64,000 bases of DNA from Candidatus Levyibacteriota bacterium (GTDB lineage: Bacteria > Patescibacteriota > Microgenomatia > Levybacterales > UBA12049), in NCBI GenBank assembly GCA_016186645.1, contig JACPLF010000010.1, positions 10,269-74,268 on the forward strand. The letters run 5' to 3'. The notes below the pieces were generated by a model. That model was not told where the DNA came from. It saw only the letters and a list, made by a program, of their open reading frames with translations, and searched no databases. The number at the start of each line of letters is the position of its first letter. Within the stretch, counting starts at the first letter, position 1. The translations under genes were made by a program, and so were the position numbers. Shown here one piece after another: positions 844-64,000 of this stretch.

Positions 844-921
844 CTTTATTATATTTAGGCACAAATATCAAGTGTTTGTCAAGCGCCTCTGGTTTTGCAG
901 GCAAAAATGCCGCTATCAAAA

Positions 922-20129: not shown

Positions 20130-20184
20130 TCCACGCCTAGACTATTGGCGGAATATAATCTAGAATAGAAAGAGATTTTATTTT

Positions 20185-21156: not shown

Positions 21157-21160
21157 TGTT

Positions 21161-39826: not shown

Positions 39827-39862
39827 GTCTTGAGTATAAAGAATACTTAATGTACAATCAAG

Positions 39863-41888: not shown

Positions 41889-41891
41889 ACT

Positions 41892-42266
41892 ATGAGTATG
41901 GTTTACAATAGATCGCTAATAAAATCTTTTGGATATTCGTTGGAAGGAGTTTGGCATGCATTGAAAAATAACCGCAATTTACGCATTACTTTTTTTCTTG
42001 CCTCAATTGTAATCTTAGTAGGTTTATATTTTCATGTTACTTCTTTTGAAATGGTTCTTTTGGTAATAGCTATTTTGCTTGTAATTTTATCGGAAATGAT
42101 AAATACGGCAATAGAGGAGATGGTAAACCTTATTACATTTGAACACAGGAAAGAAGCAAAAATCGCAAAAGATGTCGCAGCGGGAATGGTTTTGGTTGCA
42201 GCTGTGGGATCTGTAATTATCGGTCTTTTGATATTTACCCCTTATATTTTAAAGTTATTTAAATAG
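41892..42266 (+). CDS. dgkA: Diacylglycerol/undecaprenol kinase
   Basis: EMINTAIEEMVNLIT..HRKEAKIAKDVAAGMVLVAAVGS matches the prokaryotic DAGK family; 3 TM. Confidence 0.75.
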   Translation: MSMVYNRSLIKSFGYSLEGVWHALKNNRNLRITFFLASIVILVGLYFHVTSFEMVLLVIAILLVILSEMINTAIEEMVNLITFEHRKEAKIAKDVAAGMVLVAAVGSVIIGLLIFTPYILKLFK

Positions 42267-44955: not shown

Positions 44956-46185
44956 ATGAAATACAAGAGAATTGCGGTTATCTCATACCACACTTGTCCT
45001 TTGTCAGACAGCGAGGGAGAGGAAACAGGAGGACTGAATGTTTATGTGCTTGAATTGTGCAAGCAATTGGCAAGAAAAGGCTTAACAATAGATATTTTCA
45101 CCCGCTCTCAAGACAGAACAAATCAAAGAATCGTTAATGTCCGAGACAATCTTCGCGTTATACATATTGCAGCCGGCAAAGAAGAAAAAATTGAAAAGAA
45201 GAAGCTAATTCTTCATATTCCTGAATTCTTAGCCAATATGTATGATTTTATAAATGAAAATAAGATTGTTTACGATTTGGTTTATTCCCATTATTATTTG
45301 TCCGGAATTATTGGTTTACAAATTAAGGAAAAATATAATATACCTCTTTTTGTTACTTTTCATACATTGGCTCTTATGAAAAATCTTGTTGCAAGGGACG
45401 AATCGGAAAGGGAAGATGTTAAGCGGATTGAGTATGAGATACTGTTTACAAAAAAAGCAGACAAGATTATCGCAACAAGTAATTCGGATGCCCAATATCT
45501 CACTTCTTTGTATAGGTGTCCCAAAAACAAAATTTCAGTTGTAACTCCGGGAGTTGATTTGAAAATTTTCAGTCCGAAAAATAAAAGTAAAGCAAAAAAA
45601 TCTATTGGAATAAGCGAAGATCAGAAATTAATTCTTTTTGTTGGACGAATAGAGCCGCTCAAAGCTATAGATGTACTTTTGTATGCTGTAGAAATCTTAC
45701 GCGGTAACAATCCTGGGATGAAGCTCTGTCTTTGGATTTTGGGAGGAATTGTTAGAAAGAGAAATGAAAAGAATCATAAAGAACTGAAAAGACTAGAGCG
45801 ATTGAGTAAGTCATTAAACATTTTAACAGAGGTAAAATTTATAGAAAGAAAACATCAAAGTGAATTGCCAAACTATTATAATGCATCTGAAGTTGTTGTT
45901 TTACCATCGCATTATGAATCTTTTGGTATTGTCGCATTGGAGGGAATTGCTTGTGGAATTCCAGTTATTATTTCAGACACTGCAGGAGCTGCAGGTCTTT
46001 TTGACAAAAAAACTTCACCGCTGGTTACTTCTCCCAATAATCCATTGATGTTGGCTGAAAAAATAAAATACTTGTTGACAGACAAAAATGTGTATCAAAA
46101 AGTCAGAGGAGAAGTCTTAGAAAAAGTAAAAGAATTAAGTTGGGAAAATATCGCAAATAAATTTGTTGAAATTATAGAGAATTAA
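44956..46185 (+). CDS. GT4-family glycosyltransferase (MshA/BshA-like)
   Basis: N-terminal HTCPLSDSEGEETGGLNVYVLEL...LARKGLTIDIFT (MshA-type); C-terminal GT4 E-x7-E region. Confidence 0.7.
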   Translation: MKYKRIAVISYHTCPLSDSEGEETGGLNVYVLELCKQLARKGLTIDIFTRSQDRTNQRIVNVRDNLRVIHIAAGKEEKIEKKKLILHIPEFLANMYDFINENKIVYDLVYSHYYLSGIIGLQIKEKYNIPLFVTFHTLALMKNLVARDESEREDVKRIEYEILFTKKADKIIATSNSDAQYLTSLYRCPKNKISVVTPGVDLKIFSPKNKSKAKKSIGISEDQKLILFVGRIEPLKAIDVLLYAVEILRGNNPGMKLCLWILGGIVRKRNEKNHKELKRLERLSKSLNILTEVKFIERKHQSELPNYYNASEVVVLPSHYESFGIVALEGIACGIPVIISDTAGAAGLFDKKTSPLVTSPNNPLMLAEKIKYLLTDKNVYQKVRGEVLEKVKELSWENIANKFVEIIEN

Positions 46186-47739: not shown

Positions 47740-47810
47740 TACGGGATCGTCTAATGGTAGGACATGGGACTCTGAATCCCATTATCTAGGTTCGAATCCT
47801 AGTCCCGTAG
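47740..47810 (+). tRNA. tRNA-Gln (anticodon CUG)
   Basis: Manual fold: acceptor TACGGGA/TCCCGTA, D-stem GTCT/GGAC, anticodon stem TGGGA/TCCCA with loop CTCTGAA, T-arm CTAGG-TTCGAAT-CCTAG, discriminator G; CCA not encoded. Confidence 0.8.
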
Positions 47811-47811
47811 C

Positions 47812-48813
47812 ATGGATAATTTAAAAGCTCAGCTAAAAACAACAATAGATCCCGCTCAGGAATTGAAAGCTGGCGGTGAAACTGTCCATAATGTTTATGG
47901 CGAGATGAGCATATCCTTAAATAGGCTAGCTAAGCTGGTTAGAGGAGAAAACAGATGGAAGATAGATGATTGGAGTAGATATATCTTTGAGCCATTTTTC
48001 CAAAAAAGTGAAGAAACATTAAATACAGTCTATAGCAATCAAAAGGAAGTTAGGAAATTAATATTCAGGATTTCGCTTATCGTCGGTTTTGTTTTGATAC
48101 TAATCTTTTTTCTTCTTCCCCTAATTAAAAGTAATCGGGTCACCCTATCTTTTAATTTCAACACGAATCTACCTCGTTTAAGTAACTCTCTGGATCCGTC
48201 TATATCAAACAATCTGACGCAAAATTTTATGGCTATATCGACTTTTCTTGCCGTAATAGTCGCACTTTTTGCTGAACGATTTTGGAAATGGAAAGACAGA
48301 CCAAAAATAAAAATTGATTTTGATAAGAGCTCAGACAGATGTTTTAGATGGGCGATGGTTCCTTTGTGTAATATACAGGATGAAGGACAACGAAAAGATG
48401 TAAAAAAATACTATTTTAGACTTAAAGTTACCAATGATGGTGATGCAGCAATAAAGTTAAGAGTAAGGGTCGATATTAAAGACGAAACAGGAAGGGAAAT
48501 AGAAAGATTTGAGCCTTCCACCTTGCAATGGATTAATAAAAAGGAAGAAACAGATTTGCTAAAAGGAGAGTCTGAATATGTAAACTTTCTTTCGCAAGTG
48601 GTTAATTCTCCAGAAATAAAAAATCGGTTGACTATTGAGATTTTTGATACGAGTCCGCGAGGAATTGCGTGGGATAGACCATTAGACACATATGAATACG
48701 CTGTAACAATATATGGGGAAAACATTAAGCCAATTTTAATACATGCAAAATTTGTTCCAGATAGCAATATAATGAAACCTGGAAAATTAACAATAGGTAC
48801 GAGTTTGCGCTGA
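47812..48813 (+). CDS. Hypothetical two-TM membrane protein with about 180-aa C-terminal domain, immediately downstream of tRNA-Gln
   Basis: TMs LIFRISLIVGFVLILIFFLLPLI and FMAISTFLAVIVALFA; no recognised motifs. Confidence 0.45.
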   Translation: MDNLKAQLKTTIDPAQELKAGGETVHNVYGEMSISLNRLAKLVRGENRWKIDDWSRYIFEPFFQKSEETLNTVYSNQKEVRKLIFRISLIVGFVLILIFFLLPLIKSNRVTLSFNFNTNLPRLSNSLDPSISNNLTQNFMAISTFLAVIVALFAERFWKWKDRPKIKIDFDKSSDRCFRWAMVPLCNIQDEGQRKDVKKYYFRLKVTNDGDAAIKLRVRVDIKDETGREIERFEPSTLQWINKKEETDLLKGESEYVNFLSQVVNSPEIKNRLTIEIFDTSPRGIAWDRPLDTYEYAVTIYGENIKPILIHAKFVPDSNIMKPGKLTIGTSLR

Positions 48814-51376: not shown

Positions 51377-53728
51377 ATGGAAAAACTGATTCCTTTAATT
51401 CCAATAAGAGACGGAGTAATATTTCCCAACACAGATTCGGTTTTGACTTTTGGCAGGCCAAAAAGTCTGGCCGCATTAGAATCATCTTTTTCCAGCGAAA
51501 GAATTGTCTGTTTTGTTCTTCAAAAAAACTCCAAACTTAACGATCCAAGCCCCTCAGATTTATATGGCATCGGAACTCTCTCCCGTATTGAGAGAATGAC
51601 AAGGACTGAAGGGGAAATAATTGCACAAGTAAGGGGCATTACGAGGGTCAAAATAAAGTCTATCTTTGAGGAGAGCTCATACTTAATGGCAAAAGTAATT
51701 GAAGTCCCCGATATAGTGGATAACAGCCCCGAAATAAAAGCTTTATGCAATCATTTAACTAACGAATTCAGGCGTGCGATGAACCTTGGGAAGACTGTAG
51801 ACTTTTTGGTGTTCATGAATATCATGTCGGACAATTCTCCTTATGAATTTGCAGATCTTATTGCCTCAGTTTTGGACATAAAACCTTCAGAACGCCAGGA
51901 GTTATTGGAAATTAACGATGTTAGGAAAAGACTTGAAAAAATTACAGACCTTCTCACAAAAGAGCTAAAAGTTCTGGAACTTGAAAAACGTATTGCTTCC
52001 AAAACTCAGGAGAGATTTGAAAAGGGAGCAAGGGAAGCAATTCTTCGGGAGAGACTTAAGACTATAGAAAAAGAACTTGGGGATGAGGATGAAACAGGAA
52101 CGCAGGAGATTTTGGAAAAAATTAAAAAAGCTGGGATGCCTCCAGAAACCGAAGAAAAAGCCAGAAAAGAAGCTAAGAAACTGTCTCAAATGGCTCAATT
52201 CAATCCCGAGGCAGGATATATTAGAAATTATTTGGAATGGCTGGTTTCTCTTCCATGGGTAGCAAAAAGTCAGAATAATTTGGATATTAAAAAAGCAGAG
52301 AAGATTTTGGATGAAGATCATTACGGACTAAAGAAAGCCAAAGAAAGAATCGTTGAATATCTAGCGGTTCACAAACTGTCTGGGAAAATGAAAGGTCCGA
52401 TACTTTGTTTTGCAGGACCTCCGGGAGTTGGAAAAACCTCAATTGGAAAATCCATTGCAAGGAGTTTGGGCAGAAAATTCGTAAGAGTTTCTTTGGGCGG
52501 AATCAGAGATGAGGCGGAGATAAGAGGACATAGAAGAACATATGTTGGCGCACTTCCGGGACGTATAATACAGGGAGTAAAAGATGCCGGTACGCATAAT
52601 CCTGTTTTTATGCTTGATGAAATCGATAAGGTGGGTACGGACTTTAGGGGAGATCCTTCGTCCGCGCTTTTGGAAGCATTGGATCCGGAACAGAATAATC
52701 AATTTTCAGACCACTATCTTGAAGTGCCCTTTGATTTATCCGACGTAATGTTTGTTACAACAGCAAATGTTTTGGATACAATCCCGCCCGCATTAAGAGA
52801 CAGGCTTGAAGTTATAAATTTTGCAGGTTACACGCACGATGAAAAATTCAAAATTGCCAGGGAATTCTTGCTTAAAAAGCAAATAGAAAATCATGGTCTA
52901 AGTCAGGATAAGATTGAAATAACGGACAATGCTGTTCGTTTTATCATAGAGCATTACACCAGAGAAGCAGGAGTTAGAAGTCTTGAACGGCAAATTGCGG
53001 CAATTCTTAGAAAAGCCGCAAAATTGATAGCAGAAGGTAAGGTTAAAAAATTAAAAGTGACTGAGAAAGATGTCACTAAATATCTTGGGCCAATCAAGAT
53101 AAGCTCAACTTTTCTTGAGAAGAAAGATGAGATCGGAATGTCCACAGGACTTGCCTGGACTGAGGCAGGAGGAGACATCTTATTTATCGAAGTTGCATTA
53201 ATGCCGGGAAAGGGTCAGCTGATTCTCACAGGTCAGCTGGGGGATGTAATGAAAGAATCTTGCCAGGCAGCAATGTCTTATATCAGGGCTCGTGCCCGAC
53301 AATTCGGTTTGTCAGATAAATTTTATCAGAAAATTGATGTGCATGTGCATGTTCCCGAGGGCGCTGTTCCCAAAGATGGTCCATCGGCCGGGATTGCAAT
53401 TACTTCGGCGATAATGTCGGCTCTGACAAAAATTCCTGTAAATAGAAGGGTTGGAATGACAGGGGAAATTACCTTACGAGGTAGGGTTATGGAAATCGGC
53501 GGACTCAAAGAGAAAGTTATTGCCGCTCACAGAGCAGGACTTAAAACAATTATTGTTCCAAAAGAGAACAAGAAAGATTTGGTAGAATTGCCAAAAGAAG
53601 TTCTGAAGGACTTAACTTTTAAATTCGTTTCTCACATGGATGAGGTAATAGGGATTGCCTTCAAAAGACCATTGAGATTAAGACAAACAGATTCTCCACA
53701 GCATCTCCAAGCCGTCCTCCACGCCTAA
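51377..53728 (+). CDS. lon: ATP-dependent Lon protease
   Basis: LON N-domain, Walker A GPPGVGKTS, catalytic PKDGPSAGIA; 783 aa. Confidence 0.9.
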   Translation: MEKLIPLIPIRDGVIFPNTDSVLTFGRPKSLAALESSFSSERIVCFVLQKNSKLNDPSPSDLYGIGTLSRIERMTRTEGEIIAQVRGITRVKIKSIFEESSYLMAKVIEVPDIVDNSPEIKALCNHLTNEFRRAMNLGKTVDFLVFMNIMSDNSPYEFADLIASVLDIKPSERQELLEINDVRKRLEKITDLLTKELKVLELEKRIASKTQERFEKGAREAILRERLKTIEKELGDEDETGTQEILEKIKKAGMPPETEEKARKEAKKLSQMAQFNPEAGYIRNYLEWLVSLPWVAKSQNNLDIKKAEKILDEDHYGLKKAKERIVEYLAVHKLSGKMKGPILCFAGPPGVGKTSIGKSIARSLGRKFVRVSLGGIRDEAEIRGHRRTYVGALPGRIIQGVKDAGTHNPVFMLDEIDKVGTDFRGDPSSALLEALDPEQNNQFSDHYLEVPFDLSDVMFVTTANVLDTIPPALRDRLEVINFAGYTHDEKFKIAREFLLKKQIENHGLSQDKIEITDNAVRFIIEHYTREAGVRSLERQIAAILRKAAKLIAEGKVKKLKVTEKDVTKYLGPIKISSTFLEKKDEIGMSTGLAWTEAGGDILFIEVALMPGKGQLILTGQLGDVMKESCQAAMSYIRARARQFGLSDKFYQKIDVHVHVPEGAVPKDGPSAGIAITSAIMSALTKIPVNRRVGMTGEITLRGRVMEIGGLKEKVIAAHRAGLKTIIVPKENKKDLVELPKEVLKDLTFKFVSHMDEVIGIAFKRPLRLRQTDSPQHLQAVLHA

Positions 53729-53788: not shown

Positions 53789-53862
53789 GGCGCTTTCGTC
53801 TAGTGGTCTAGGACGTCACCTTCTCAAGGTGAATATCACGGGTTCGAATCCCGTAAGCGCTA
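53789..53862 (+). tRNA. tRNA-Glu (anticodon CUC)
   Basis: Manual fold: acceptor GGCGCTT/AAGCGCT (G1·U72), D-stem GTCT/GGAC, anticodon stem TCACC/GGTGA with loop TTCTCAA, T-arm ACGGG-TTCGAAT-CCCGT. Confidence 0.75.
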
Positions 53863-53925
53863 CTGTCTTAAGTTTCCGAACAAGCTAAATTGTTCTACCT
53901 CTCAATTTTTAGTATAATTTTTTGT

Positions 53926-54681
53926 ATGGAGCAAATTTATTTATCCGTTGTAATTCCGTCTTATGATGAGATGGCGAATTTGCAAAAAGGGGTTTTGGAT
54001 AAAGTTGAACATTTCCTAAGCCGGAAAAAGTATTCTTTTGAGGTAATTATTGTTGATGACGGCTCAACTGATGGAAGCGTTGAATTTGTTAAAGAGTTTA
54101 TTAAGGATAATCCCAACTTTAGGCTTATTGAGAATCCTCATTTGGGTAAAGCGGGAGCGGTAACAACCGGCATCCTTAATTCAAAAGGAGCATGTGTGCT
54201 TTTTTCCGATATGGATCAAGCAACTCCGATTGAAGAGGTTGATAAGCTATTGCCATATTTTAATGAGAATTACGATATTGTAATTGGGTCAAGGAAATCC
54301 CAGAGAAAAGGCGCGCCATGGACAAGAATTCTTATGGCAAAAGGAATGATTTTCTTAAGAACATTATTGGTAAATATTCATGGCATCTCAGATACTCAAT
54401 GCGGGTTCAAAATGTTCAAAAGAGAAGTAGCATTAAAACTTTTTGGCAGGATTAATGAAATGCATCATAATTTTAAAAAAGTTTCAGGATCAAGTGTTAC
54501 TGCGGGATTTGATGTTGAACTTTTGTATCTTGCACAAAAAATGGGATATAAGATCAAAGAAGTCCCCGTTAGTTGGTTGTATGTTGAAACAAGAAGGGTC
54601 AGTCCTATAAAGGATTCGGTAGAAGGCCTCATAGACCTTATCCGGATAAAAGGAAAGTCTCTTGGAGGAGGCTATAATTGA
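53926..54681 (+). CDS. Polyprenol-phosphate glycosyltransferase (GT2, Alg5/GtrB-like)
   Basis: LSVVIPSYDEMANL, VIIVDDGSTDGS, FSDMDQATP (Alg5-type DxDxAT). Start set at MEQIY (53926); the track start 53890 lies just after the tRNA. Confidence 0.7.
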   Translation: MEQIYLSVVIPSYDEMANLQKGVLDKVEHFLSRKKYSFEVIIVDDGSTDGSVEFVKEFIKDNPNFRLIENPHLGKAGAVTTGILNSKGACVLFSDMDQATPIEEVDKLLPYFNENYDIVIGSRKSQRKGAPWTRILMAKGMIFLRTLLVNIHGISDTQCGFKMFKREVALKLFGRINEMHHNFKKVSGSSVTAGFDVELLYLAQKMGYKIKEVPVSWLYVETRRVSPIKDSVEGLIDLIRIKGKSLGGGYN

Positions 54682-55865
54682 AAAAATTCTCATTCTCAAA
54701 CGTTGGATATCTAATTGCTGTAATTGGATTATTTTTTTATTCCTTTACTCAAGTTGATCTAAGTCTTACTTTGTCTCAGATATCCATATGGCAGGTATTT
54801 GAAAAGTTTTTTCAGCACATTGGTTATTTTCAAAGACCTCTTTCCGGTTGGTTATTCATTGGCACTGTATCTTTACTTTTTATTTTTTATCTGGCTATAC
54901 TTCGTGGCGTTCATAAAAAAAAGATTTCCAGAGAAACAATTTGGTTTTTAATTATCTCAACTGTAGTACTTTTGGCCTTTTCTTATAATGCATTTTCTTA
55001 TGATCTTTTCAATTATATTTTTGATGCAAAGATTGTAACCAACTACAATCTAAATCCGTACACACATAAGGCTTTAGATTTTCCTGGTGACCCAATGCTT
55101 TCTTTTATGCACTCGACTCACCGGCCATACCCTTATGGCCCGGTCTGGATATTGTTAACAGCTCCTCTGTCTTTTTTAGGTTTTGGATTTTTCTTGCCGA
55201 CTTTTCTTATTTTCAAAACTTTTATTGCAGCAAGTTTTTTAGGATCTAGTTATTTCTTAGAAAAGATTTTAAAGCAAGTAAAAATACAAGATGATTTATT
55301 TGCCCTATCTTTTTTCGCTCTTAATCCTCTTGTTATTGTTGAATCATTGGTTTCAGGACACAATGATATTGTTATGATTTTTTTATCATTATGGTCTTTG
55401 TATTTAATAATAAATAAAAAATATATTGGAGCATTTCTATTGTTAGTATTATCAATAGGAATAAAATTTGCAACCGTAATTTTATTGCCGGTATTTATCT
55501 ATATTTTGGTGAAACAATTAAAAAATAATGCAATCGATTTCAAGAAAATTTTCATGATTGCCTTTATCTCAATGTGCTCAGCTGTTACAATAACTTCATT
55601 CGCCTCCGGCATAAATAAAAATCCAGAGATTCAGCCTTGGTATTTTCTTATGGTTTTTCCTTTTGCGGCCCTTGTAGCTCATAAAAGGCTGATTGTTTTT
55701 CTTTCAATTTGCATATCTGTTGGAATGCTAATTTCGTATATTCCATATCTTTTGATGGGTGAGTGGCCAAAGGATATTGCTGAGCTAAAAGTAAAATTAT
55801 TGATTTTATCAATAGGTTTGGGATTTTTTCTTTACGCTATCAAAAGGAGGTTTCTGATAAAATAA
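54678..55865 (+). CDS. Polytopic membrane protein, GT-C-like (possibly DUF2029/GT87-related)
   Basis: About 10 TM; loop AFSYDLFNYIFDAKIVTNYNLNPYTHKALDFPGDPMLSF...YPYGPVW. Confidence 0.4.
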   Translation: MKKFSFSNVGYLIAVIGLFFYSFTQVDLSLTLSQISIWQVFEKFFQHIGYFQRPLSGWLFIGTVSLLFIFYLAILRGVHKKKISRETIWFLIISTVVLLAFSYNAFSYDLFNYIFDAKIVTNYNLNPYTHKALDFPGDPMLSFMHSTHRPYPYGPVWILLTAPLSFLGFGFFLPTFLIFKTFIAASFLGSSYFLEKILKQVKIQDDLFALSFFALNPLVIVESLVSGHNDIVMIFLSLWSLYLIINKKYIGAFLLLVLSIGIKFATVILLPVFIYILVKQLKNNAIDFKKIFMIAFISMCSAVTITSFASGINKNPEIQPWYFLMVFPFAALVAHKRLIVFLSICISVGMLISYIPYLLMGEWPKDIAELKVKLLILSIGLGFFLYAIKRRFLIK

Positions 55866-55869
55866 GTTT

Positions 55870-57393
55870 ATGGGTTTTATTAAGAAGTACAGAATTCAAA
55901 TTCTCGTTTTGGCAGCCTTAACGTTAATATATCTTGTCTCCAGATTCTACAGCATTTTGTCTTTACCCATATTTACTGATGAAGCAATTTATGTTAGGTG
56001 GGCGCAGATTGCAAAACAAGATGCCAACTGGCGATTCATTTCTCTAACCGATGGAAAGCAACCAATGTTTATTTGGCTAATGATGATCTCCTTGCGTTTC
56101 ATAGAAGATCCTTTGTTGGCCGGAAGAGTTGTTTCTGTGGGAGCTGGATTTCTCAGTCTAATTGGAATGTATTTCTTGGGAAGGGAATTGTTTAGGAGTA
56201 ACAAAATCGGATTGATTTCAAGCTCATTGTATGTCTTTTTTCCAATGAGTTTAGTATATGACAGGATGGCTTTGTACGACAGCCTTGTCGGAGCATTTGC
56301 TATCTGGGGGTTGTTTTTTATAGTTCTTCTGGTTCGGACAGTACGCCTAGACGTTGCGCTGATTCTTGGAATGGTAATAGGAGGAGGAGTCCTTACTAAG
56401 ACTAATGCCTTTTTCAATATCTATCTTCTTCCTTTTTCTCTAATTTTGTTTGATTGGCGGGGGAAGGGTATAAAGAATAGGCTAATGAGGTGGTTAGGTT
56501 TGACTGTTGTCGTACTAATAATTACTTATGCATTATATTCAGTCCTGCGACTTTCCCCCTTTTTCCATATAATAACTGAAAAAAATGCAATTTTTGTTTA
56601 TCCCCTGAAGGATTGGCTTAACCATCCTTTCGCTTTTTTTATCGGTAATTGGAAAGCTTTTTGGGATTGGACTATTAGATATTTAACGTGGCCGCTTCTT
56701 GCTCTTGCGCTTTTATCTTTTTTTGTTTCAAAATCTTTTTTTAGAGAAAAATTAATTCTTTTCTTTTGGTTTATTCTTCCGATTGTAGCTTTAGGCCTTT
56801 TTGGGAGAACTCTTTATCCTCGTTTTATTTTCTTCATGCTGCTTCCGCTTTTGCCTCTTATTGCATTTTCCTTAGTTAATATTTCCAAGCGATTAAAGAA
56901 AACTTATTTATTGATAATTTTTCTTGTTTTATCTTTTGCTTTACCTCTCAAAACAGATTTTCTGATACTTACTGATTTTGCTAAGGCCTATATTCCTGTT
57001 TCCGATCAGAGGCAATATCTAAGTGATTGGCCGGCGGGCGGAGGAGTCAAGGATGCTGTTGAGTTTTTTAAAAAAGAAGCAGAAAAGGGAAAAATTTATG
57101 TAGCAACTCAAGGGACTTTTGGATTAATGCCATTCGCATTAGAAATTTATTTGGTGCAAAATCCCAACATAACAATTGAAGGGATATGGCCAGTAGAAGA
57201 CGTTATCCCTCAAAGAGTTCTTGAGAAAAGTAAGCAAATGCCGACATATTTTGTTTTTTACCAGCCCTGCATGATAAAAACTTGCCCTTTTATAGGAGAG
57301 GCGCCGACGACATGGAAAAATTTAGAGCTTATTCAGCAATACAGAAAAGGCTATGGTAAAAGATTTTTCTCTTTGTACAAAGTAATGCCATGA
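55870..57393 (+). CDS. GT-C glycosyltransferase (GT39/PMT_2/ArnT-like)
   Basis: First loop LPIFTDEAIYVRWAQ (DE motif); about 11 TM. Confidence 0.6.
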   Translation: MGFIKKYRIQILVLAALTLIYLVSRFYSILSLPIFTDEAIYVRWAQIAKQDANWRFISLTDGKQPMFIWLMMISLRFIEDPLLAGRVVSVGAGFLSLIGMYFLGRELFRSNKIGLISSSLYVFFPMSLVYDRMALYDSLVGAFAIWGLFFIVLLVRTVRLDVALILGMVIGGGVLTKTNAFFNIYLLPFSLILFDWRGKGIKNRLMRWLGLTVVVLIITYALYSVLRLSPFFHIITEKNAIFVYPLKDWLNHPFAFFIGNWKAFWDWTIRYLTWPLLALALLSFFVSKSFFREKLILFFWFILPIVALGLFGRTLYPRFIFFMLLPLLPLIAFSLVNISKRLKKTYLLIIFLVLSFALPLKTDFLILTDFAKAYIPVSDQRQYLSDWPAGGGVKDAVEFFKKEAEKGKIYVATQGTFGLMPFALEIYLVQNPNITIEGIWPVEDVIPQRVLEKSKQMPTYFVFYQPCMIKTCPFIGEAPTTWKNLELIQQYRKGYGKRFFSLYKVMP

Positions 57394-59021
57394 GGTTTTT
57401 CCGCTATTATCTTTTAGTTCTTATCTTATCTTGTCTGCCGTTTATCGGTATTTTTTTAACCTCACTTTTGCCTCATACCCATGATGGTTTGGTTCACCTG
57501 GCAAGAATAGGGGCATATTTTAAAGCACTTTCAGATGGGCAAATTCCGGTTAGGTGGGCCGGGGATCTCAATTACGGGTATGGAATGCCACTTTTTAATT
57601 TTATGTACCATGTTCCATACATTATTTCTTCTTTTTTTGTCTTTTTGGGAGCAGGGCTGGTAAGTGCTTTCAAGATTGCTCTTGTTTTGAGTTTTATATT
57701 GTCGGGAATTTTTATGTTTGGATTTTCCTTAAGTTTTTTTAAAGACATAAAAAAAGCTTTTTTGGTCACACTTTTTTATCAATTTTTCCCTTTCAGACTT
57801 GTTGAAATTTTAATTAGGGGAAGTTTTGGAGAAGTATACGCCTATGCTTTTTTTCCTCTTGTTCTATGGGGAATAGTATTGCTTTCCAAAAAAGTTAACT
57901 TTAAAAATATTTCAGTAACATCTTTAGGAACAGCATTGCTTATACTTTCTCATAACGCTTTAAGTCTGGTATTTTTTTCAATCTGCATTATTTTTATATT
58001 ATTCTTTGCAGGGAAACCCAAAAATTATATCTATCCATTTTTTGCACTTTTTCTAGGTCTTCTTTTGGCCGCATTTTATTGGATTCCTGCAATTTTTGAA
58101 CACAACTATACATATGGAGATTTATTTATGAAAGATTTATACACCACCCACTTTCCTCCAATTCAGAATTTTTTTATTCCCAACTTTCTTAATAATTCAG
58201 TCTTGCAAACAGGAGGAATATCTATTCAAATTGGTTTGTTTCATACGCTAGTTTTTGCCTTAGGAATCTTCGCCCTTTTTTCTAAAAAAATCGCAAAGTT
58301 CGACAAAAGATTAACTATTTTTTGTCTTTGTATTTTTGCTGGTGCCCTATTTATAATGCAGCCAATTTCAATTTTCCTTTGGGAGAAAATATCTCTTCTT
58401 CGCCAATTTCAATTTTCTTGGAGACTTCTTTCTGTTATTGGTTTTGCAACATCCCTTATGGCAATTTCAATATTTTATTTTGGTTTTTTCAAGAAAAAAA
58501 TTATTTATTTTTCGCTGCTTTTCTTATTAATTTTCTCGACCTTTTATTATTGGAAACCAGTTCTGGGATGGGATAAGATTGACGAAAAATATTATTGGAA
58601 TTTTCCTCTTACAACAACCTATTTTGGAGAGACGGATCTAATATGGTCGGAAGGTCCTGCCAAAAAGTATCCGCTTCATAGAGTTGAAGTGATTGACGGA
58701 AAAGGAGTTGTTAGTCAGTTGGTAAAAAAATCTAATATTCTTACCTTTAAGACTGATAATGAAACTCCAATCAAAGTCGTAACCCACATTCAATATTTTC
58801 CCGGCTGGAGAGCGTTCGTTGATGATAAGCAAGTATCAATTGAGTTTCAGTACGGAATCTATAGGGGACATATTGTTTTTGAAATTCCTATTGGCCAGCA
58901 TGAAGTAAAACTTTCTTTTGGAGAAAGTAGGATAAGATTTATCGCGGATATGCTGACAGTAATTGGGTTTGTATTTTTAATCTCCGTAGGGTTTTTGCTT
59001 AAATATTTTAAGAAAACATGA
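57390..59021 (+). CDS. GT-C-like polytopic membrane protein (paralog of the 63018+ gene)
   Basis: First loop LPHTHDGLVHLARIGAYFKALSDGQIPVRWAGDLNYGYGMPLFNFMYH. Start codon overlaps the preceding stop. Confidence 0.5.
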   Translation: MRFFRYYLLVLILSCLPFIGIFLTSLLPHTHDGLVHLARIGAYFKALSDGQIPVRWAGDLNYGYGMPLFNFMYHVPYIISSFFVFLGAGLVSAFKIALVLSFILSGIFMFGFSLSFFKDIKKAFLVTLFYQFFPFRLVEILIRGSFGEVYAYAFFPLVLWGIVLLSKKVNFKNISVTSLGTALLILSHNALSLVFFSICIIFILFFAGKPKNYIYPFFALFLGLLLAAFYWIPAIFEHNYTYGDLFMKDLYTTHFPPIQNFFIPNFLNNSVLQTGGISIQIGLFHTLVFALGIFALFSKKIAKFDKRLTIFCLCIFAGALFIMQPISIFLWEKISLLRQFQFSWRLLSVIGFATSLMAISIFYFGFFKKKIIYFSLLFLLIFSTFYYWKPVLGWDKIDEKYYWNFPLTTTYFGETDLIWSEGPAKKYPLHRVEVIDGKGVVSQLVKKSNILTFKTDNETPIKVVTHIQYFPGWRAFVDDKQVSIEFQYGIYRGHIVFEIPIGQHEVKLSFGESRIRFIADMLTVIGFVFLISVGFLLKYFKKT

Positions 59022-61360
59022 AAATAAAAAATATTTTTCTGGCCATTTTGCTTTTTTCCGTAATCATTTTCGGTTTTTTTTACAAGACTGCATTTAATAA
59101 ATACGTCCCTTTTCCCGGAGATCTTTTGGTTTCCGAATATAACCCTTGGAAAGCATATTCTTTTTTGGGCTACAATCCAGGGTCGTATCCCAATAAAGCT
59201 CAGTATTTTGATGTATTAAGGCAAATTTATCCGTGGAAAACATTTTCAATAGATTCTCTTAAGAATGGTGTTTTGCCTTTGTGGAATCCATATAATTTTT
59301 CGGGATCTCCGCTTCTGGCTAATTTCCAATCCTCTGTATTTTATCCTTTTAACTTTTTATATTTTTTACTGCCCCAAATCTGGGCATGGAGCACCATAGT
59401 TATCCTTCAGCCTTTCCTAGCACTGGTATTTACGTTTTTATATACAAGAAAAATAGGAATAAGTCGGGCTGGGTCAATTTTAGCAAGTACGTCTTTTGCT
59501 TTTTCTTCCTTCATGACTGTTTGGCTTGAGTACAATACGATTGGACATGTAATATTATGGCTTCCTTTAATCTTATTGTCTTTAGAGAAACTTTTTGAAA
59601 AAAGATCTGCAATCTGGTCACTTATTTTAGTTCTTTCTCTTGCATCTTCACTTTTTGCAGGACACATACAGATCTTTGTCTATCTATTCTTTTTCACTTT
59701 CCTTTATTCTTTTGCAAGAAAAAAAATATCTTTATTTTTAATATTTTTATTTATCTTGTCTTTGGGGATAGGCGCTGTTCAGCTTATTCCTGGAATTGAA
59801 TTGATATTGCAGTCTGCACGAAGTGCTCATTCATATGACTTAATAGTTAACAAAATCCTAATCCAGCCTTGGCAGCTTGCCATGCTGTTTGTTCCCGATC
59901 TTTTTGGAAATCCGGCAACGCGTAATTATTTTATACAGGATACTTATGTCGGGGATGTAATTTACGTGGGTTTAATACCATTATTATTTTCCATATTTGC
60001 AATTTTCAATGTCAGAAACTCTTTCGTAAAACTTTTTTCCGCTGCTGCTTTTATTCTTTTTATTTTAATAACTCTTAATCCTTTAACTCAATTGATTTAT
60101 AAAATAAATATACCTTTTATTTCCTCAAGCGCATCAAATCTTTTGGTATTTTTAATTTGTTTTTCATTAAGTGTTCTTTGTGGCTTTGGAGTTGATCAGT
60201 TTATTAAAAATAGATATCCGCTAAAAAGTAGTCTCAAATTTTTAGGATCTTTTGTTTTAATTTTCTCTATTTTATGGTTGACGGTTTTAGTCTTTTCCAA
60301 TCTTCCTCTCTCCTCACGTAACCTTATTTATTCAACGATTCTATTTATTGTAGCTTTAGTTTTATTCCTTGCCGCAGTTGTTAATAATAGAATTAAATAT
60401 CTTGTCGTAATACTCTTAATTCTTATCAGCATCTTTGATCTATGGAGATTTTTTCAGAAATTTAATCCTTTTTCGCCTATCGAATTTACAATGCCTACTA
60501 CTCCCATTCTCGATTTTATAAAGAAAAATAATGGGATAAATAGATTCTGGGGATATGGAAGCGGGACTATTGAAGCCAATTTTGCCACACAATATTCAAT
60601 TTTTTCAACTGATGGCTACGATCCTTTGTATCCAAAAAGATATGGTGAATTTATTCAGTCATCCAAAGATGGAAAAATTCAAACACAATTTACTGCCCAA
60701 ACCCGTTCAGACGCATTTGTTGTGCCAGGGTTTGGTGAGACTGATCTAATAGCGAATGAGTCGCGATTAAAGGTTCTCGACCTTTTAGGAGCTAAATACA
60801 TTTTAGATAAAAAAGAAAATGCCAGTACTCAAAAAACGTTTCCCCTAGATAGGTTTTCCTTAGTTTATGAACAAGATGGATGGAAAATTTTTGAGAATAA
60901 GAAAGCATTGCCGCGGGCATTCCTGGTCTCGGATTACAAGGTGGCAAAAAATTCTTCAGAATTTGAAAAGATATTTTTTGCCAAAGATTTCGACTCCTCA
61001 AAGACAATAATTTTAGAAGAAGATTTGAAAGATCAGTACTTCGATAATTCAAATCATCTAAGCGACGTTCAGACAATATTCTACGGCCCAAACGAAATTC
61101 AATTTAAAACAAATACCGATGGGAAGCATCTGCTTTTTCTCTCAGATACTTATTATCCCGGCTGGGAAGCTTATGTCGATAGCAATGATGCCAAAATATA
61201 CAGAGCAGATTATGCGTTCAGGGCAGTAATAATTCCTTCGGGAAGTCACAGTGTGAAGTTTGTTTATAATCCTATATCTTTTAAGATTGGATATATCATT
61301 TCCTTGATCAGCTTAGCTTTGTTAGGGATTACGCTTTTGACTGTAAAAAAGAAGCTGTAG
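59018..61360 (+). CDS. Large GT-C-like membrane protein (YfhO-like)
   Basis: N-terminal FPGDLLVSEYNPW...LPLWNPYNFSGSPLLANFQSSVFYPFN, many TMs, about 230-aa C-terminal extracytoplasmic domain. Confidence 0.5.
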   Translation: MKIKNIFLAILLFSVIIFGFFYKTAFNKYVPFPGDLLVSEYNPWKAYSFLGYNPGSYPNKAQYFDVLRQIYPWKTFSIDSLKNGVLPLWNPYNFSGSPLLANFQSSVFYPFNFLYFLLPQIWAWSTIVILQPFLALVFTFLYTRKIGISRAGSILASTSFAFSSFMTVWLEYNTIGHVILWLPLILLSLEKLFEKRSAIWSLILVLSLASSLFAGHIQIFVYLFFFTFLYSFARKKISLFLIFLFILSLGIGAVQLIPGIELILQSARSAHSYDLIVNKILIQPWQLAMLFVPDLFGNPATRNYFIQDTYVGDVIYVGLIPLLFSIFAIFNVRNSFVKLFSAAAFILFILITLNPLTQLIYKINIPFISSSASNLLVFLICFSLSVLCGFGVDQFIKNRYPLKSSLKFLGSFVLIFSILWLTVLVFSNLPLSSRNLIYSTILFIVALVLFLAAVVNNRIKYLVVILLILISIFDLWRFFQKFNPFSPIEFTMPTTPILDFIKKNNGINRFWGYGSGTIEANFATQYSIFSTDGYDPLYPKRYGEFIQSSKDGKIQTQFTAQTRSDAFVVPGFGETDLIANESRLKVLDLLGAKYILDKKENASTQKTFPLDRFSLVYEQDGWKIFENKKALPRAFLVSDYKVAKNSSEFEKIFFAKDFDSSKTIILEEDLKDQYFDNSNHLSDVQTIFYGPNEIQFKTNTDGKHLLFLSDTYYPGWEAYVDSNDAKIYRADYAFRAVIIPSGSHSVKFVYNPISFKIGYIISLISLALLGITLLTVKKKL

Positions 61361-61380
61361 GCTATATAATATAAGCATAG

Positions 61381-63021
61381 ATGAGCAAAAAAGTCGTATT
61401 TATCTTTCTTGCAGTATTGTTGGTTGCTTCTGTTTTCAGACTCTACGAATTAATTGATATTCCACCAGGAGTTAATCGTGACGAAGCATCAATCGGTTAT
61501 ACTGCATATTCGATATTGCATACAGGTAAGGATGAGTATGGAAAACTCTTTCCGCTATCTTTTCAATCTTTTGGTGATTGGAAATTACCTTTATATATTT
61601 ATACAGTAGTTCCTTTTGTTTCTGTTTTTGGACTGAGTGAATTAGCGGTTAGATTGCCATCTGCAATCATTGGCATTTTATCAGTAGCTCTTACTTTTTA
61701 TTTAGTAAAAATTCTTTTCAAAAATAACCTGCTTGCTCTTATTGCAATGTTTTTGGCTGCGGTCTCTTCCTGGAGCGTTCATTTATCCAGAGTAGAATCA
61801 GAGTCTAACACTGCTGTTTTCCTTACGCTCTTAGGAACTATTCTCTTTCTAAAGAGTTTTAAAGAAAAGAAATGGTTGATTATTCCAAGCGCTTTTTGTT
61901 TCGCTTTAACGTACTTTACCTATGCCGGAAATCATATTTTCACAACCTTTTTTGTTGCAGGATTAGTATTCTTTTATCGCGATCAAATTAAGCAAACTCG
62001 ATTAAATCTTATAGCTTTTTTTATTTTTTTAAGTTTGTCTGGGCTTATTTTTTACCAGACACTTTTTAGCGCAAGTACGACAAAATTATCAGGTATAAGT
62101 ATTTTTGGAGATCCATCAGTTATTCATGCAAAAATTGAAATTCCCCGAAATGAACATACAGATTCCCAGTCTCTTTTTGCAAGAATTACGCATAATAAAA
62201 TAGTTTTTGCGGGAGAAAGAATTGCTCAAAACTACCTTAACTCGTTCTCTCCTTCATTCCTGTTTATAAAGGGCGGAGATAATAACGCGCATAATATTGC
62301 AAATTTTGGCAACATGTATATTGTTGAAGCACCTTTCCTTTTCTTGGGATTGATTTACCTTCTTGCTATAAGAAAGGGTAGAGAAAAAAAACTTCTGATG
62401 TTGTGGTTTTTCATTGCACCTATTGCCGTAAGCATAACTAAAGACGCGCCCCATACAAACAGAATGTTTGCCATATTTCCAGCACTTCAATTGGTTACAG
62501 CTTTTGGGATATGGTGGACGATTAGCGAGTTGATCAAAAAGGACGCTTTTAAAAAAATATTTATAGCTGTTGTTGCATTTTTATTCTTGATAAATGTCGC
62601 CGTATACATAGACAGATATTTTATTCATTTTCCAAGAAACGAAGTAAGGAATTGGGGATTGGGATATAAAAAACTGGATGAGGTTTTATCCAAGCCTGAA
62701 TTTGTTAATAAAAAAATTATTATATCAAGACCTAAATATTCTCCTTACATTTACTTACTTTTTTACAATCCTTATGACCCCAGCAAATATCAAAAAGAAG
62801 TAAAAAGATATCCTCCAACACAGGATGGATTTGTAGATGTAAAAGGATTTGGAAGGTATGAATTTAGAGGGATTGATTGGGGAAAAGATATTCAAACGCC
62901 CAACACTCTGATTGTTGATTGGTCTTCAGATGTTCCTGCATCTGTAAAACAAGCTTTCCATAAGGAAGATATCATACTTCCAAATGACGAATTTATGTTT
63001 ACGATTATTGAAACGCGATGA
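61381..63021 (+). CDS. GT-C glycosyltransferase (GT39/PMT_2/ArnT-like)
   Basis: First loop NRDEASIGYTAYSILHTGKDEYGKLFPLSF is the classic ArnT/PMT Asp-Glu loop; about 12 TM. Confidence 0.65.
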   Translation: MSKKVVFIFLAVLLVASVFRLYELIDIPPGVNRDEASIGYTAYSILHTGKDEYGKLFPLSFQSFGDWKLPLYIYTVVPFVSVFGLSELAVRLPSAIIGILSVALTFYLVKILFKNNLLALIAMFLAAVSSWSVHLSRVESESNTAVFLTLLGTILFLKSFKEKKWLIIPSAFCFALTYFTYAGNHIFTTFFVAGLVFFYRDQIKQTRLNLIAFFIFLSLSGLIFYQTLFSASTTKLSGISIFGDPSVIHAKIEIPRNEHTDSQSLFARITHNKIVFAGERIAQNYLNSFSPSFLFIKGGDNNAHNIANFGNMYIVEAPFLFLGLIYLLAIRKGREKKLLMLWFFIAPIAVSITKDAPHTNRMFAIFPALQLVTAFGIWWTISELIKKDAFKKIFIAVVAFLFLINVAVYIDRYFIHFPRNEVRNWGLGYKKLDEVLSKPEFVNKKIIISRPKYSPYIYLLFYNPYDPSKYQKEVKRYPPTQDGFVDVKGFGRYEFRGIDWGKDIQTPNTLIVDWSSDVPASVKQAFHKEDIILPNDEFMFTIIETR

Positions 63022-64000
63022 AAAAAAATATTCTTCTGATTCTTATTTTGATTATTTTTTCTATACCCGCAATACTTCCTCTTTTTAATAAGGGTTTTTT
63101 CCAAAGCGATGACGGAGAATGGATGATTATAAGAGCGGCATCCTTTTATTCAGCACTTGCGGATGGACAATTCCCTGTTAGATATTTATCTAGTCTTAAT
63201 TATGGGTATGGATATCCTGTTGCTAATTTTCTATATCCGGGATTTATGTATTTAGCTGTTCCAATTCATATTTTGAGTTTTGGTTTTGTGGATACGATTA
63301 AAATTATCTTAGGACTTTCCATGGTTGGTTCTGCTGTCTTTTCTTTCCTCTGGCTTTCAAAAATATTTAATAAATTTTCTGCATTTGTTGGATCGATATA
63401 CTATCTATATATGCCATATCACTTATTTGATCTTTATAAAAGGGGATCTGTTGGAGAAATTCTTGCGTTGGCAATTGTTCCTTTTATCTTGTGGCAAATT
63501 GAGAGAAAAAGTTTTTTCTGGACTATCTTGGGAATATCATGTCTTATTCCCGCTCACAATACCCTAGCTCTTTTGTTTTTCCCAATTGTCATTTTTTATT
63601 TGGCTAGAAAATTCTCTGTCCGCGACACTTTATACACACTAATTATCAGTCTTGGCATGTCCTGTTTCTTCTGGATTCCCGCTCTTTTTGATTTACAATA
63701 TACAATTTTTTCTAGAACAAAAGTATCTGAATGGCAAAACTATTTTGCAGACATAAATGTTATCAGTTATTTGTCGTTAATTATCCTTGCTATAGGTATT
63801 GGGATGGCAGCAAAAAAGAAAGTTTTGGGTGCAGCTCTCTTTCTCTTAATTGTAGGATTAATATCTTTATTTTTATCAACTTCAGGTAGTAGTTTTATTT
63901 GGCAAGCACTTCCCATATCGTTTGTACAATTTCCTTTTAGATTTTTATCAGTAGAAATCTTGACCGTTTCATATTTAGCGAGTTTTATTTTGTCTAGTAT
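63018..64000 (+). CDS. GT-C-like polytopic membrane protein, 3'-partial at window edge (paralog of 57390..59021)
   Basis: SDDGEWMIIRAASFYSALADGQFPVRYLSSLNYGYGYPVANFLYPGF is parallel to the 57390 paralog. ATGA start/stop overlap with the previous gene. Confidence 0.5.
   Translation, partial: MKKNILLILILIIFSIPAILPLFNKGFFQSDDGEWMIIRAASFYSALADGQFPVRYLSSLNYGYGYPVANFLYPGFMYLAVPIHILSFGFVDTIKIILGLSMVGSAVFSFLWLSKIFNKFSAFVGSIYYLYMPYHLFDLYKRGSVGEILALAIVPFILWQIERKSFFWTILGISCLIPAHNTLALLFFPIVIFYLARKFSVRDTLYTLIISLGMSCFFWIPALFDLQYTIFSRTKVSEWQNYFADINVISYLSLIILAIGIGMAAKKKVLGAALFLLIVGLISLFLSTSGSSFIWQALPISFVQFPFRFLSVEILTVSYLASFILSS

Follow-up and report, generated by a model that had tools for sequence, protein, structure and literature searches.

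The subject of this report is a run of glycosyltransferase (GT) genes at the right-hand end of a 64,000-nucleotide stretch of DNA, called here the window, from a Candidatus Levyibacteriota bacterium (contig JACPLF010000010.1 of assembly GCA_016186645.1, positions 10,269 to 74,268 of the forward strand). The host is a metagenome-assembled genome of the Microgenomates/Patescibacteria (candidate phyla radiation, CPR) and belongs to a groundwater lineage with very small genomes. The run begins behind a tRNA gene with a GT2 gene, named here GT2a, and continues with genes for polytopic proteins of the GT-C class, named O2 to O7 in their order along the window; a further one, O8, lies past its end. 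The features, with protein lengths in amino acids (aa), are as follows:

51377-53728: Lon protease, ahead of the tRNA-Glu gene
53789-53863: tRNA-Glu(ctc), found with ARAGORN; upstream boundary of the locus
53926-54681, + strand: GT2a, soluble GT-A glycosyltransferase of 251 aa, predicted polyprenyl-phosphate sugar synthase (PF00535)
53890-54681, + strand: GT2a read from an alternative TTG start at 53890, 263 aa, from the list of open reading frames (ORFs)
54678-55865, + strand: O2, probable polytopic GT-C of the PimE/MptA/GT87 type (GT-C_B-like), 395 aa
55870-57393, + strand: O3, PMT_2/ArnT-like GT-C with a TDE motif and a C-terminal soluble domain, 507 aa
57390-59021, + strand: O4, GT-C of the PF10131 'PTPS_related'/YfhO superfamily with an HTHDG loop, 543 aa
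59018-61360, + strand: O5, YfhO-family GT-C (PF09586) with a PGD loop, 780 aa
61381-63021, + strand: O6, PMT/PMT_2 (ArnT-like) GT-C with an RDE loop and a C-terminal soluble domain, 546 aa
63018-64000, + strand, cut by the window end: O7, second PF10131/YfhO-superfamily GT-C, with an SDDG loop

A first-pass annotation of the window had described, behind a tRNA-Glu and a GT2 gene, six polytopic GT-C genes in a row, the last one running off the window, all tightly packed and with several start/stop overlaps. ARAGORN and the ORF list agree with this layout. The gaps at the junctions from GT2a to O7 are, in order, -4, +4, -4, -4, +20 and -4 nt, that is, 4 of the 6 are 4-bp start/stop overlaps. All the GT-Cs of the array are polytopic by hydropathy, where segment counts were used solely to distinguish polytopic proteins from those lacking transmembrane (TM) segments, and they carry an acidic residue in the loop after TM1. 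From its sequence the locus looks like an operon. Neither terminator-like sites (2 against 8 expected) nor promoter-like sites (31 against 38 expected) were enriched inside the array. O2 starts with a TTG preceded by the Shine-Dalgarno sequence GGAGGAGG, and it is the only gene within the array with a clear one. A database protein that is 100% identical to O4 is annotated as hypothetical protein HYW62_04825 of Candidatus Levybacteria bacterium. The G+C content of the array is slightly lower (0.33-0.36) and its AT skew negative, which is expected because hydrophobic proteins use T-rich codons.

Upstream of GT2a we spotted by eye the hexamers TTGTTC (53890-53895) and TATAAT (53913-53918), separated by a 17-nt spacer, the second one ending 8 nt before the ATG at 53926. 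TTGTTC has 3 of 6 matches to the -35 element and hence stayed outside the list of the automatic scan. If this pair is a real promoter, the TTG at 53890 would be excluded as a start, the ATG at 53926 would be favoured and the mRNA of GT2a would be leaderless.

Regarding the first gene of the array, GT2a matched PF00535 with an E-value of 4.8e-28 (98.6 bits against a gathering cut-off of 23.3). It contains the motifs VDDGS and, at residues 95-100, DMDQAT, and the residues D44, D45, D95 and D97 are kept in 22 orthologs. Its closest solved relatives in a sequence search of the PDB were GtrB sll0501 (9e-14), the DPMS of Pyrococcus (1.8e-13) and ArnC (1.5e-10), in line with the earlier placement of this gene in the Alg5/GtrB type with a DxDxAT motif. 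The top NCBIfam models were PgfS (6.9e-19), ArnC, PpgS, Dol-P-hexose transferase and AglJ. We predict that GT2a, as well as the two alternative types of GT2 found after O8 in relatives (GT2b and GT2b', described below), are GtrB/DPMS/ArnC-like polyprenyl-phosphate sugar synthases.

Three of the GT-Cs pass the cut-offs of curated Pfam families. O3 matched PMT_2 (PF13231) with 2.3e-10 and 41.4 bits against a cut-off of 26.1. O6 matched both PMT (PF02366; 4.3e-9, 36.7 bits against 22.7) and PMT_2 (6e-7, 30.2 bits against 26.1). Both had been taken from the beginning for ArnT/PMT-type proteins with DE loops, and these loops are present: D37/E38 of O3, in the TDE motif after TM1, and D34/E35 of O6, in the RDE motif, are kept at 97% or more in 35 and 40 orthologs respectively. 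The two proteins are related at the profile level only (BLASTP E 0.24; hhalign probability 97.3%, E 2e-11). The Agl23-type model TIGR03663 also hit O6 with 5.5e-9, far under its cut-off of 126 bits. O5, which had been called YfhO-like, matched YfhO (PF09586) with 6.6e-31 and 107.9 bits against a cut-off of 28.5; D35 in its PGD loop is invariant in 19 orthologs and kept at 97% or more in 55. Towards its C-terminus the protein has a large extracytoplasmic domain and, at the very end, a TM segment, and this C-terminus resembles the NCBIfam models of PgfM1/PgfM2 (31 bits against a cut-off of 1500).

O4 and O7 had been singled out as a distinct paralogous pair with an HDG/DDG first loop. They are paralogs indeed (31% identity, E 6e-34), and their family is PF10131. 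O4 itself gave no Pfam match at E<=0.01 and O7 got PF10131 at an E-value of 0.26 only; the family emerges from their relatives. The homologs of O4 number hundreds, mainly in Levybacteria and other Patescibacteria, and most of them carry a precomputed match to PF10131 'PTPS_related', some being named by NCBI '6-pyruvoyl-tetrahydropterin synthase-related protein'. In an alignment of 41 proteins of the O4/O7/O8 family, PF10131 was matched by 37 (best 2.2e-16) and YfhO by 3, and the profile of this family matched that of the O5 (YfhO) family with an hhalign probability of 99.2% and an E-value of 1.6e-19. PF10131 is a member of the Pfam GT-C clan CL0111 (PMC7801869). D32 of O4, in the HTHDG loop, is invariant, and D31 and D32 of O7, in the SDDG loop, are kept at 97% or more in its orthologs.

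The continuation of the array can be read on L001, a Logan contig whose sequence is identical to that of the window. O7 is full-length there (501 aa) and is followed, with a 4-bp overlap, by O8. This is a third paralog of the O4/O7 family with an MHDD loop, present there as a 179-aa N-terminal fragment. Thus the number of consecutive GT-Cs is at least seven, and not the six first counted. An ortholog of O8 passes the cut-off of PF10131 (33.9 bits against 26.4) as well as that of PMT_2 (31.6 bits), and the ortholog in the relative L005 shows the MHDD loop too.

The AlphaFold2 model of O4, built on an alignment of window sequences and database proteins, reached a predicted local distance difference test (pLDDT) score of 85.7 and a predicted TM-score (pTM) of 0.88. 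It shows a membrane core, a beta-sandwich at around residues 433-510 and a final TM helix. In a Foldseek comparison with the PDB, a probability of 1.00 was reached by STT3, AftD, PglB, AglB, ArnT and Pmt4 only (best E 3e-5), whereas transporters, including those of the major facilitator superfamily (MFS), stayed at 0.28 or less with TM-scores of 0.15 or less. When all PDB chains were searched, with the sequences of O4, O5 and O6 and with profiles of the families of O4/O7/O8, O2 and O5, no match was obtained; it is only the fold comparison that links these proteins to solved GT-Cs. At the family level we assign O4, O7 and O8, by these profiles, to the PF10131/YfhO-superfamily GT-Cs, and with this locus the PF10131 'PTPS_related' family, so far uncharacterised, is placed in a functional context for the first time.

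We also considered whether an STT3/oligosaccharyltransferase was present and rejected this identity, because there is no WWD or W[WYF]DxG motif in the eight array proteins (O8 being the 179-aa fragment). Given that WWDYG is missing, the fold match between O4 and STT3 is due to the shared GT-C_A membrane core.

O2 is probably a GT-C_B-type enzyme, less firmly placed than the other genes of the array. The MptA model TIGR03459 hit it with 2.5e-13 (49.8 bits against a cut-off of 439), and GT87 (PF09594) was found at E<=1e-3 in 6 of its 19 orthologs. Its homologs carry a precomputed PF26314, and some are named DUF2029 or GT87 in their sources. The DUF2029-like label that it had received holds, with weaker support than the other family calls: the GT87 score of O2 itself does not reach the Pfam cut-off. 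Asp27 lies just past TM1 and is invariant in both alignments of the O2 family. The six top PDB fold matches of its AlphaFold2 model (pLDDT 82.3, pTM 0.86) include glycosylphosphatidylinositol-mannosyltransferase I, PimE, ALG6 and PIG-U, with probabilities of 0.6-0.99, weak E-values (0.065-0.8) and TM-scores of 0.30-0.45.

An all-versus-all profile comparison joined O4, O7 and O8 at 100% probability and added O5 to them at 95-99%. O3 and O6 formed a second group, with a weak link between O3 and O8 at 67%, and O2 stood alone, at 23% or less to any other array gene. We therefore rejected the idea that all six are paralogs: there are three GT-C lineages, not all detectably related. In O3 to O7 the acidic residues of the first loop were kept at 97% or more across 27-67 orthologs.

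In order to compare the array among relatives, we scanned one genome per species (9 loci) and the JGI metagenomes (79 loci), typing the ORFs with hidden Markov models built from the orthologs. The complete run GT2a-O2-O3-O4-O5-O6-O7-O8, with its seven GT-Cs, was found in 19 other loci; 55 shorter contigs fit the same order and 14 loci were arranged otherwise. The orthologs are 40-82% identical to the proteins of the window. Overlaps of 4 bp predominate at the O3>O4 and O4>O5 junctions of the relatives, and Lon stands upstream of GT2a, as in the window, in L005, L013, L029, L037, L048 and L059. After O8 the order in relatives is a second GT2 (GT2b or GT2b'), a flippase of the MOP family and a third GT2 (GT2c). 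The flippase matched Polysacc_synt_3 with 4.8e-47, the MOP family with 6.6e-35 and an O-glycosylation flippase model with 9e-29. GT2b and GT2b' have no membrane anchor and scored best against ArnC, AglJ, PgfS and Dol-P-hexose transferase; among solved structures too, as for GT2a, polyprenyl-phosphate glycosyltransferases (GtrB, DPMS, ArnC) headed the sequence matches. They are not orthologous to each other, GT2b having the motif VDDGSSD and GT2b' the motif IADNAS, and GT2b' is the type present in those relatives that stand nearest to the window. The alternative genes at this place are these:

L013:18931-19656, L016:12617-13348 and L037:18897-19631, on one side: GT2 after O8
L005:16048-16782, on the other side: GT2 after O8

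This suggests that the second donor sugar was swapped between lineages. Judging from these relatives, the locus in Candidatus Levybacteria has around 17-18 kb and 11 genes, and the window holds the first two-thirds of it. One-to-one orthology in a fixed order argues that the set of GT-Cs is old and fixed and not a recent, lineage-specific burst. The first-pass annotation had spoken of an unusual paralog expansion and of a complete toolkit, and neither expression can be kept. The array is made of three lineages with one-to-one orthologs in the same order in 19 other loci. As for completeness, the synthase and the GT-Cs are encoded together in the window, and the array there has no flippase; a MOP flippase, with two more GT2s, was seen downstream in relatives, beyond the point where the window ends.

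Other arrangements were also seen. In L008, L009, L030, L035, L041, L045, L056 and L074 a divergent block faces O4-O5-O6, in which a single O4-like gene is accompanied by a tandem of three genes of the PMT type (O6-like); this architecture has no adjacent GT87-like gene or GT2a. O4 is relocated in some variant loci, and L088, L090 and L031 continue past GT2c with further YfhO-type GT-Cs and GT2s. Regarding the source labels, L005, L008 and L010 (CAYPUE010000001.1, CAYIBX010000001.1 and CAYHQC010000020.1) are titled 'uncultured Gammaproteobacteria bacterium', and this label looks wrong. L005 holds the order of the Levybacteria type, including Lon at 80% identity, and L008 and L010 hold the variant O4-O5-O6 architecture.

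We consider it very probable that this is a locus for extracytoplasmic glycosylation by GT-Cs that use polyprenyl-phosphate sugars. The lipid-carrier-dependent core that had been proposed for it agrees with the GtrB/DPMS/ArnC-like GT2 and with the GT-C enzymes recognised by family and fold. The word 'periplasmic' in that proposal needs a correction: Patescibacteria are generally regarded as monoderm, and for a lineage of this type 'extracytoplasmic' is the safer term. Whether the whole locus also forms a single coordinated multi-step pathway acting on one surface glycoconjugate is a more demanding claim, and here we see the balance as even.

According to this pathway reading, GT2a, and in relatives also the second GT2, would transfer a sugar from a nucleotide sugar to polyprenyl phosphate at the cytoplasmic face, and the two synthases would supply two donor lipids. 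The charged lipid could be flipped by the downstream MOP flippase, or by the GtrA-type domain of another GT2 encoded in the window at 22232-23473. The seven GT-Cs (one PimE/MptA-like, two PMT/ArnT-like and four YfhO/PTPS_related-like) would then use the lipid-phosphate sugars at the outer face. The conserved Asp after TM1 is the hallmark of transferases using such sugars at that face. They may act as successive or branch-specific steps, each one making a different linkage; from the fixed order and the one-to-one orthology we infer that they are not redundant and perform separate steps on one glycoconjugate. The acceptor might be a glycan anchored in a lipid or in the wall, or a surface protein in which a tract is rich in Ser, Thr and Pro. 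Reported targets of YfhO and PMT_2 GT-Cs that work with a partner GT2 are teichoic acids, polysaccharides of the wall, and proteins (PMC8035078; PMC12041528). The YfhO-type enzymes act on teichoic acids in Bacillus and Listeria and on Ser/Thr-rich protein regions in streptococci (PMC12041528), and flippases of the MOP superfamily (MATE) carry polyprenyl-phosphate-sugar donors (PMC11127046).

A stronger form of the pathway reading, which we put forward tentatively and regard as somewhat improbable, is a self-contained extracytoplasmic assembly line, in which a short primer would be flipped (with the MOP flippase and the cytoplasmic GT2c) and the seven GT-Cs would extend and branch a complex glycan from only two donors. 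If this were true, it would be a bacterial counterpart, in one operon, of the extension of the N-glycan precursor in the lumen of the endoplasmic reticulum (ER) or of the synthesis of mycobacterial lipomannan and lipoarabinomannan (LAM). An episymbiont lineage with an ultra-small genome would then be spending around 2% of it on this assembly line, and what it makes would be one of the main glycoconjugates on the surface of Levybacteria, with a possible role in the attachment to host cells.

Several observations weigh against a pathway of this kind, or against parts of it. The whole argument is built on homology, models and synteny, and among related small genomes a fixed synteny can persist without a single pathway behind it. 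GT2a and GT2b/b' do not reach any NCBIfam equivalog cut-off (best 68-70 bits against 325-529), therefore no specific enzyme or donor sugar can be assigned to the GT2s. No hydrophobic segment and no C-terminal anchor of the GtrA/DPMS type was found in GT2a or GT2b, and this, together with the lack of an equivalog score, means that polyprenyl phosphate is a presumed acceptor of both. Soluble catalytic subunits needing a membrane partner are known, as in GacI/GacJ (PMC8035078). O2 scores 22.4 bits with GT87, just below the cut-off of 25, and its fold matches are weak by E-value. The genes past O8 are known from relatives and not from this genome. Furthermore, L008, L009, L030, L041, L066, L080 and L090 keep an O4-O5-O6 core and add or lose other GT-Cs, and these variant architectures, like the swapped GT2 after O8, fit a modular, combinatorial decoration no less than a fixed assembly line.

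The last point leads to the alternative that survives best, namely that the locus is a bundle of independent 'three-component' decoration systems sharing one or two donors. Every GT-C would then have an acceptor of its own, such as one of several Ser/Thr-rich surface proteins, a wall polysaccharide or a polymer resembling teichoic acid, and would add one sugar to it. The three Csd pairs of Lactococcus lactis, and CsbB/YfhO together with GtlA/GtlB in Listeria, would be the models, here standing next to one another. This is possible, on the doubtful side. The known YfhO and PMT_2 enzymes do each serve a single class of acceptor, which receives one sugar from them (PMC8035078), and PgtC2 and PgfM1 act on proteins (PMC12041528). 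Known independent systems, however, normally have one GT2 for one GT-C, and here the ratio is 2:7. Single GT-Cs are gained, lost and duplicated in the variant loci (L008, L009, L030 and L056, for instance, have a tandem of three PMT-type copies on the opposite strand), and the distal GT2 is exchangeable; against this, the group of seven GT-Cs and its order are unbroken in 19 loci, down to around 42% identity, with overlaps of the type seen in translational coupling. The window contains candidate protein acceptors (10459-11331 and 1-864 on the minus strand) that such a bundle could use, but it also contains a classical stand-alone GT2 and GT-C pair at 22232-25013, which shows that this genome does keep independent systems as separate pairs.

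It could also be that some of the seven proteins are non-catalytic partners, that is, scaffolds or proteins for acceptor binding, for assisting the flippase or for handling the lipid carrier, comparable to PIG-U or to Agl23, the 'flippase activity-associated' protein of archaea. PIG-U is a non-catalytic subunit with the GT-C fold and appears among the fold matches of O2, and it has been speculated that small GT-Cs need separate acceptor-binding partners (PMC8035078). The Agl23-type model TIGR03663 matches O6 (5.5e-9) and the upstream PMT_2 protein (3.6e-7), with scores far under its cut-off of 126 bits. We regard this explanation as unlikely, because all seven proteins have the acidic residue in the first loop (kept at 97% or more in O3-O7, invariant in O2, and present as MHDD in the O8 fragment and in its L005 ortholog) and because they have further invariant Arg, His and Glu positions, which are unexpected in degenerate subunits.

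Finally, that the polytopic proteins are transporters or other non-glycosyltransferases with a superficial GT-C likeness, as the lack of a significant Pfam match of their own for O4 and O7 and of any sequence-level PDB match might suggest, is effectively refuted: O3, O5 and O6 pass the curated PMT_2, YfhO and PMT cut-offs, the 37 of 41 O4/O7/O8 members with PF10131 belong to a family homologous to YfhO at E 1.6e-19, the O4 model reaches 1.00 with GT-Cs only, and searches with family models and structures placed none of the proteins in a transporter family. A transporter identity was consequently rejected on the Pfam, profile and O4 fold evidence.

In the searchable literature we found no description of this locus, or of GT-C arrays in Patescibacteria. 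The nearest systems are the multi-component transmembrane glycosylation systems of Gram-positive bacteria, such as CsbB/GtcA/YfhO, GtlA/GtlB, CsdAB/CD/EF and GacI/GacL (PMC8035078; PMC5836110). There too a GT2 of the undecaprenyl-phosphate-sugar-synthase type adjoins YfhO/PMT_2 GT-Cs with an acidic motif in an extracellular loop, flipping is left to a separate GtrA or Wzx/MOP protein, and the sugar is transferred outside the membrane. However, those systems have one GT2 for one GT-C and add a single sugar, whereas here there are seven GT-Cs of three lineages and two synthase-like GT2s, the GT2s have no anchor and the host is a Patescibacterium, which is not known to have teichoic acids.

The systems for protein O-glycosylation in streptococci are also similar (PMC12041528); S. 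mutans has the Pgf operon, PgfS-PgfM1-PgfE-PgfM2, and S. pyogenes/S. pneumoniae have GtrB/PgtC2. PgfS is the top NCBIfam model of GT2a, the C-terminus of O5 matches PgfM1/PgfM2, more than one YfhO-type GT-C shares an operon with one GT2, and Ser/Thr-rich extracytoplasmic tracts that might be acceptors are encoded in this window. Nevertheless, the scores are far under the equivalog cut-offs (68 against 500 bits and 31 against 1500 bits), and the array has no epimerase, has seven GT-Cs instead of two and has no embedded adhesin genes.

The three-component GT136 systems, which add pentofuranose side chains to Gram-negative O antigens (Kelly et al. 2024, PMC11127046), share with the locus, as seen in relatives, a polyprenyl-phosphate-sugar synthase and a flippase of the MOP superfamily (MATE), and their GT-C carries a carbohydrate-binding module at its C-terminus; in our array O4, O5 and O7 end in a beta-rich extracytoplasmic domain. 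They differ in that their synthase belongs to a family dependent on phosphoribosyl pyrophosphate, in having a single GT-C, and in using a MATE flippase, compared with the Wzx-like Polysacc_synt_3 protein of the relatives.

Two more distant systems resemble the locus in the number of GT-Cs. In the ER lumen of eukaryotes the N-glycan precursor is extended with the products of the synthases ALG5 and DPM1 by ALG3, 9, 12, 6, 8 and 10, and is transferred by STT3; the structures are 6snh for ALG6 and 8agb for STT3. The logic is the same, with two lipid-phosphate-sugar synthases, flipping and around seven GT-Cs of the GT-C_A and GT-C_B classes. GT2a has the ALG5-like D-x-D-x-A-T motif, and the model of O4 matches STT3 and that of O2, with a weak E-value, ALG6. 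However, our array has no WWDYG, and the likeness to the ALG enzymes is one of architecture only.

In mycobacteria and corynebacteria, lipomannan, LAM and arabinogalactan are assembled by Ppm1 with PimE, MptA/B/C, AftA-D and EmbA-C, for which the structures are 9dm5/9dm7 (PimE), 6w98 (AftD) and 7bvf (Emb). There a polymer is built up step by step beyond the membrane by many GT-Cs, which draw on one or two polyprenyl-phosphate sugars, and aftA-embCAB is also a tandem of GT-Cs. O2 matches the MptA model and, with a weak E-value, the PimE fold, and the model of O4 matches AftD. The differences are that most of the mycobacterial genes are dispersed, no more than around four of them being in a row, that the likeness is remote and no cut-off is reached, and that the genes of the decaprenyl-phosphate-arabinose pathway are absent here. 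A mycolate-type envelope would not be expected in this lineage.

The components are members or probable members of known families, the class of mechanism is known and the locus does not represent a new principle. What we did not find described in the searchable literature is the fixed set in which seven GT-Cs, of three lineages, are combined with a MOP flippase and two synthase-like GT2s, compact and conserved in a CPR lineage with very small genomes. As far as we could find, it is the densest fixed array of GT-Cs from three lineages, which makes it a natural system for studying how linkages and acceptors are divided among such enzymes. The cell surface of the Patescibacteria is almost wholly uncharacterised and is the presumed interface through which they attach to host cells and exploit them. 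The block shows a heavy investment of one CPR lineage in extracytoplasmic glycosylation from lipid-linked sugars, with a set of genes that could be reconstituted in a heterologous host.

Surface-sugar genes are plentiful in the window, which elsewhere contains these other genes related to sugars and lipid carriers:

17956-22120, + strand: block of an RmlD-type reductase, a UDP-glucose/GDP-mannose dehydrogenase, a GDP-mannose/dTDP-glucose 4,6-dehydratase-type enzyme (PF16363, 2e-129) and an NAD-dependent epimerase
41289-42266, + strand: PAP2-family phosphatase (1.3e-6) and an adjoining prokaryotic DgkA-type kinase (3e-32)
44956-46185: GT4

The nucleotide-sugar block lies directly upstream of the stand-alone pair (22232-25013, + strand) and could supply donor sugars. 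This pair consists of a 413-aa GT2 (22232-23473; PF00535, 9e-25) with a C-terminal GtrA/DPMS TM domain (PF04138, 5.9e-10), and of an overlapping 518-aa PMT_2 GT-C (4e-19) with an LGDEGRD loop. Counting the pair together with the array, there are therefore at least 8 GT-C genes within around 45 kb. Activities of the PAP2 and DgkA types recycle undecaprenyl pyrophosphate and undecaprenol in Gram-positive bacteria, and the two genes at 41289-42266 may feed the pool of lipid carrier used by the GT2/GT-C systems.

Regarding possible protein acceptors, two surface proteins are predicted: the ORF at 10459-11331 (+ strand) encodes a signal peptide, a beta-rich domain, a 40-residue Pro/Thr/Ser linker (PTSTPTPTPSPTNTPTPTKTPTPSPTHSPTPT) and a C-terminal TM anchor, and the ORF at 1-864 (- strand) encodes an N-terminal TM segment followed by a Ser/Gly/Asp/Asn tract of around 45 residues. 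Neither of the two gave a Pfam match. Judging from their composition, it is plausible that these two proteins are O-glycosylated, and we consider them candidate acceptors. Tracts of this kind are O-glycosylated in actinobacteria and streptococci.

Two further observations concern ORFs of other parts of the window. A 333-aa ORF (47812-48813) begins at the base next to the end of a tRNA-Gln gene (47740-47811) and has no Pfam match. On the minus strand, a 483-aa ORF initiated by TTG (38786-40237) overlaps the genes for a glutamyl/glutaminyl-tRNA synthetase (PF00749, 1e-89) and an S11 D-Ala-D-Ala carboxypeptidase, with the plus-strand gene at 39863-41287, and is most likely a spurious antisense ORF.

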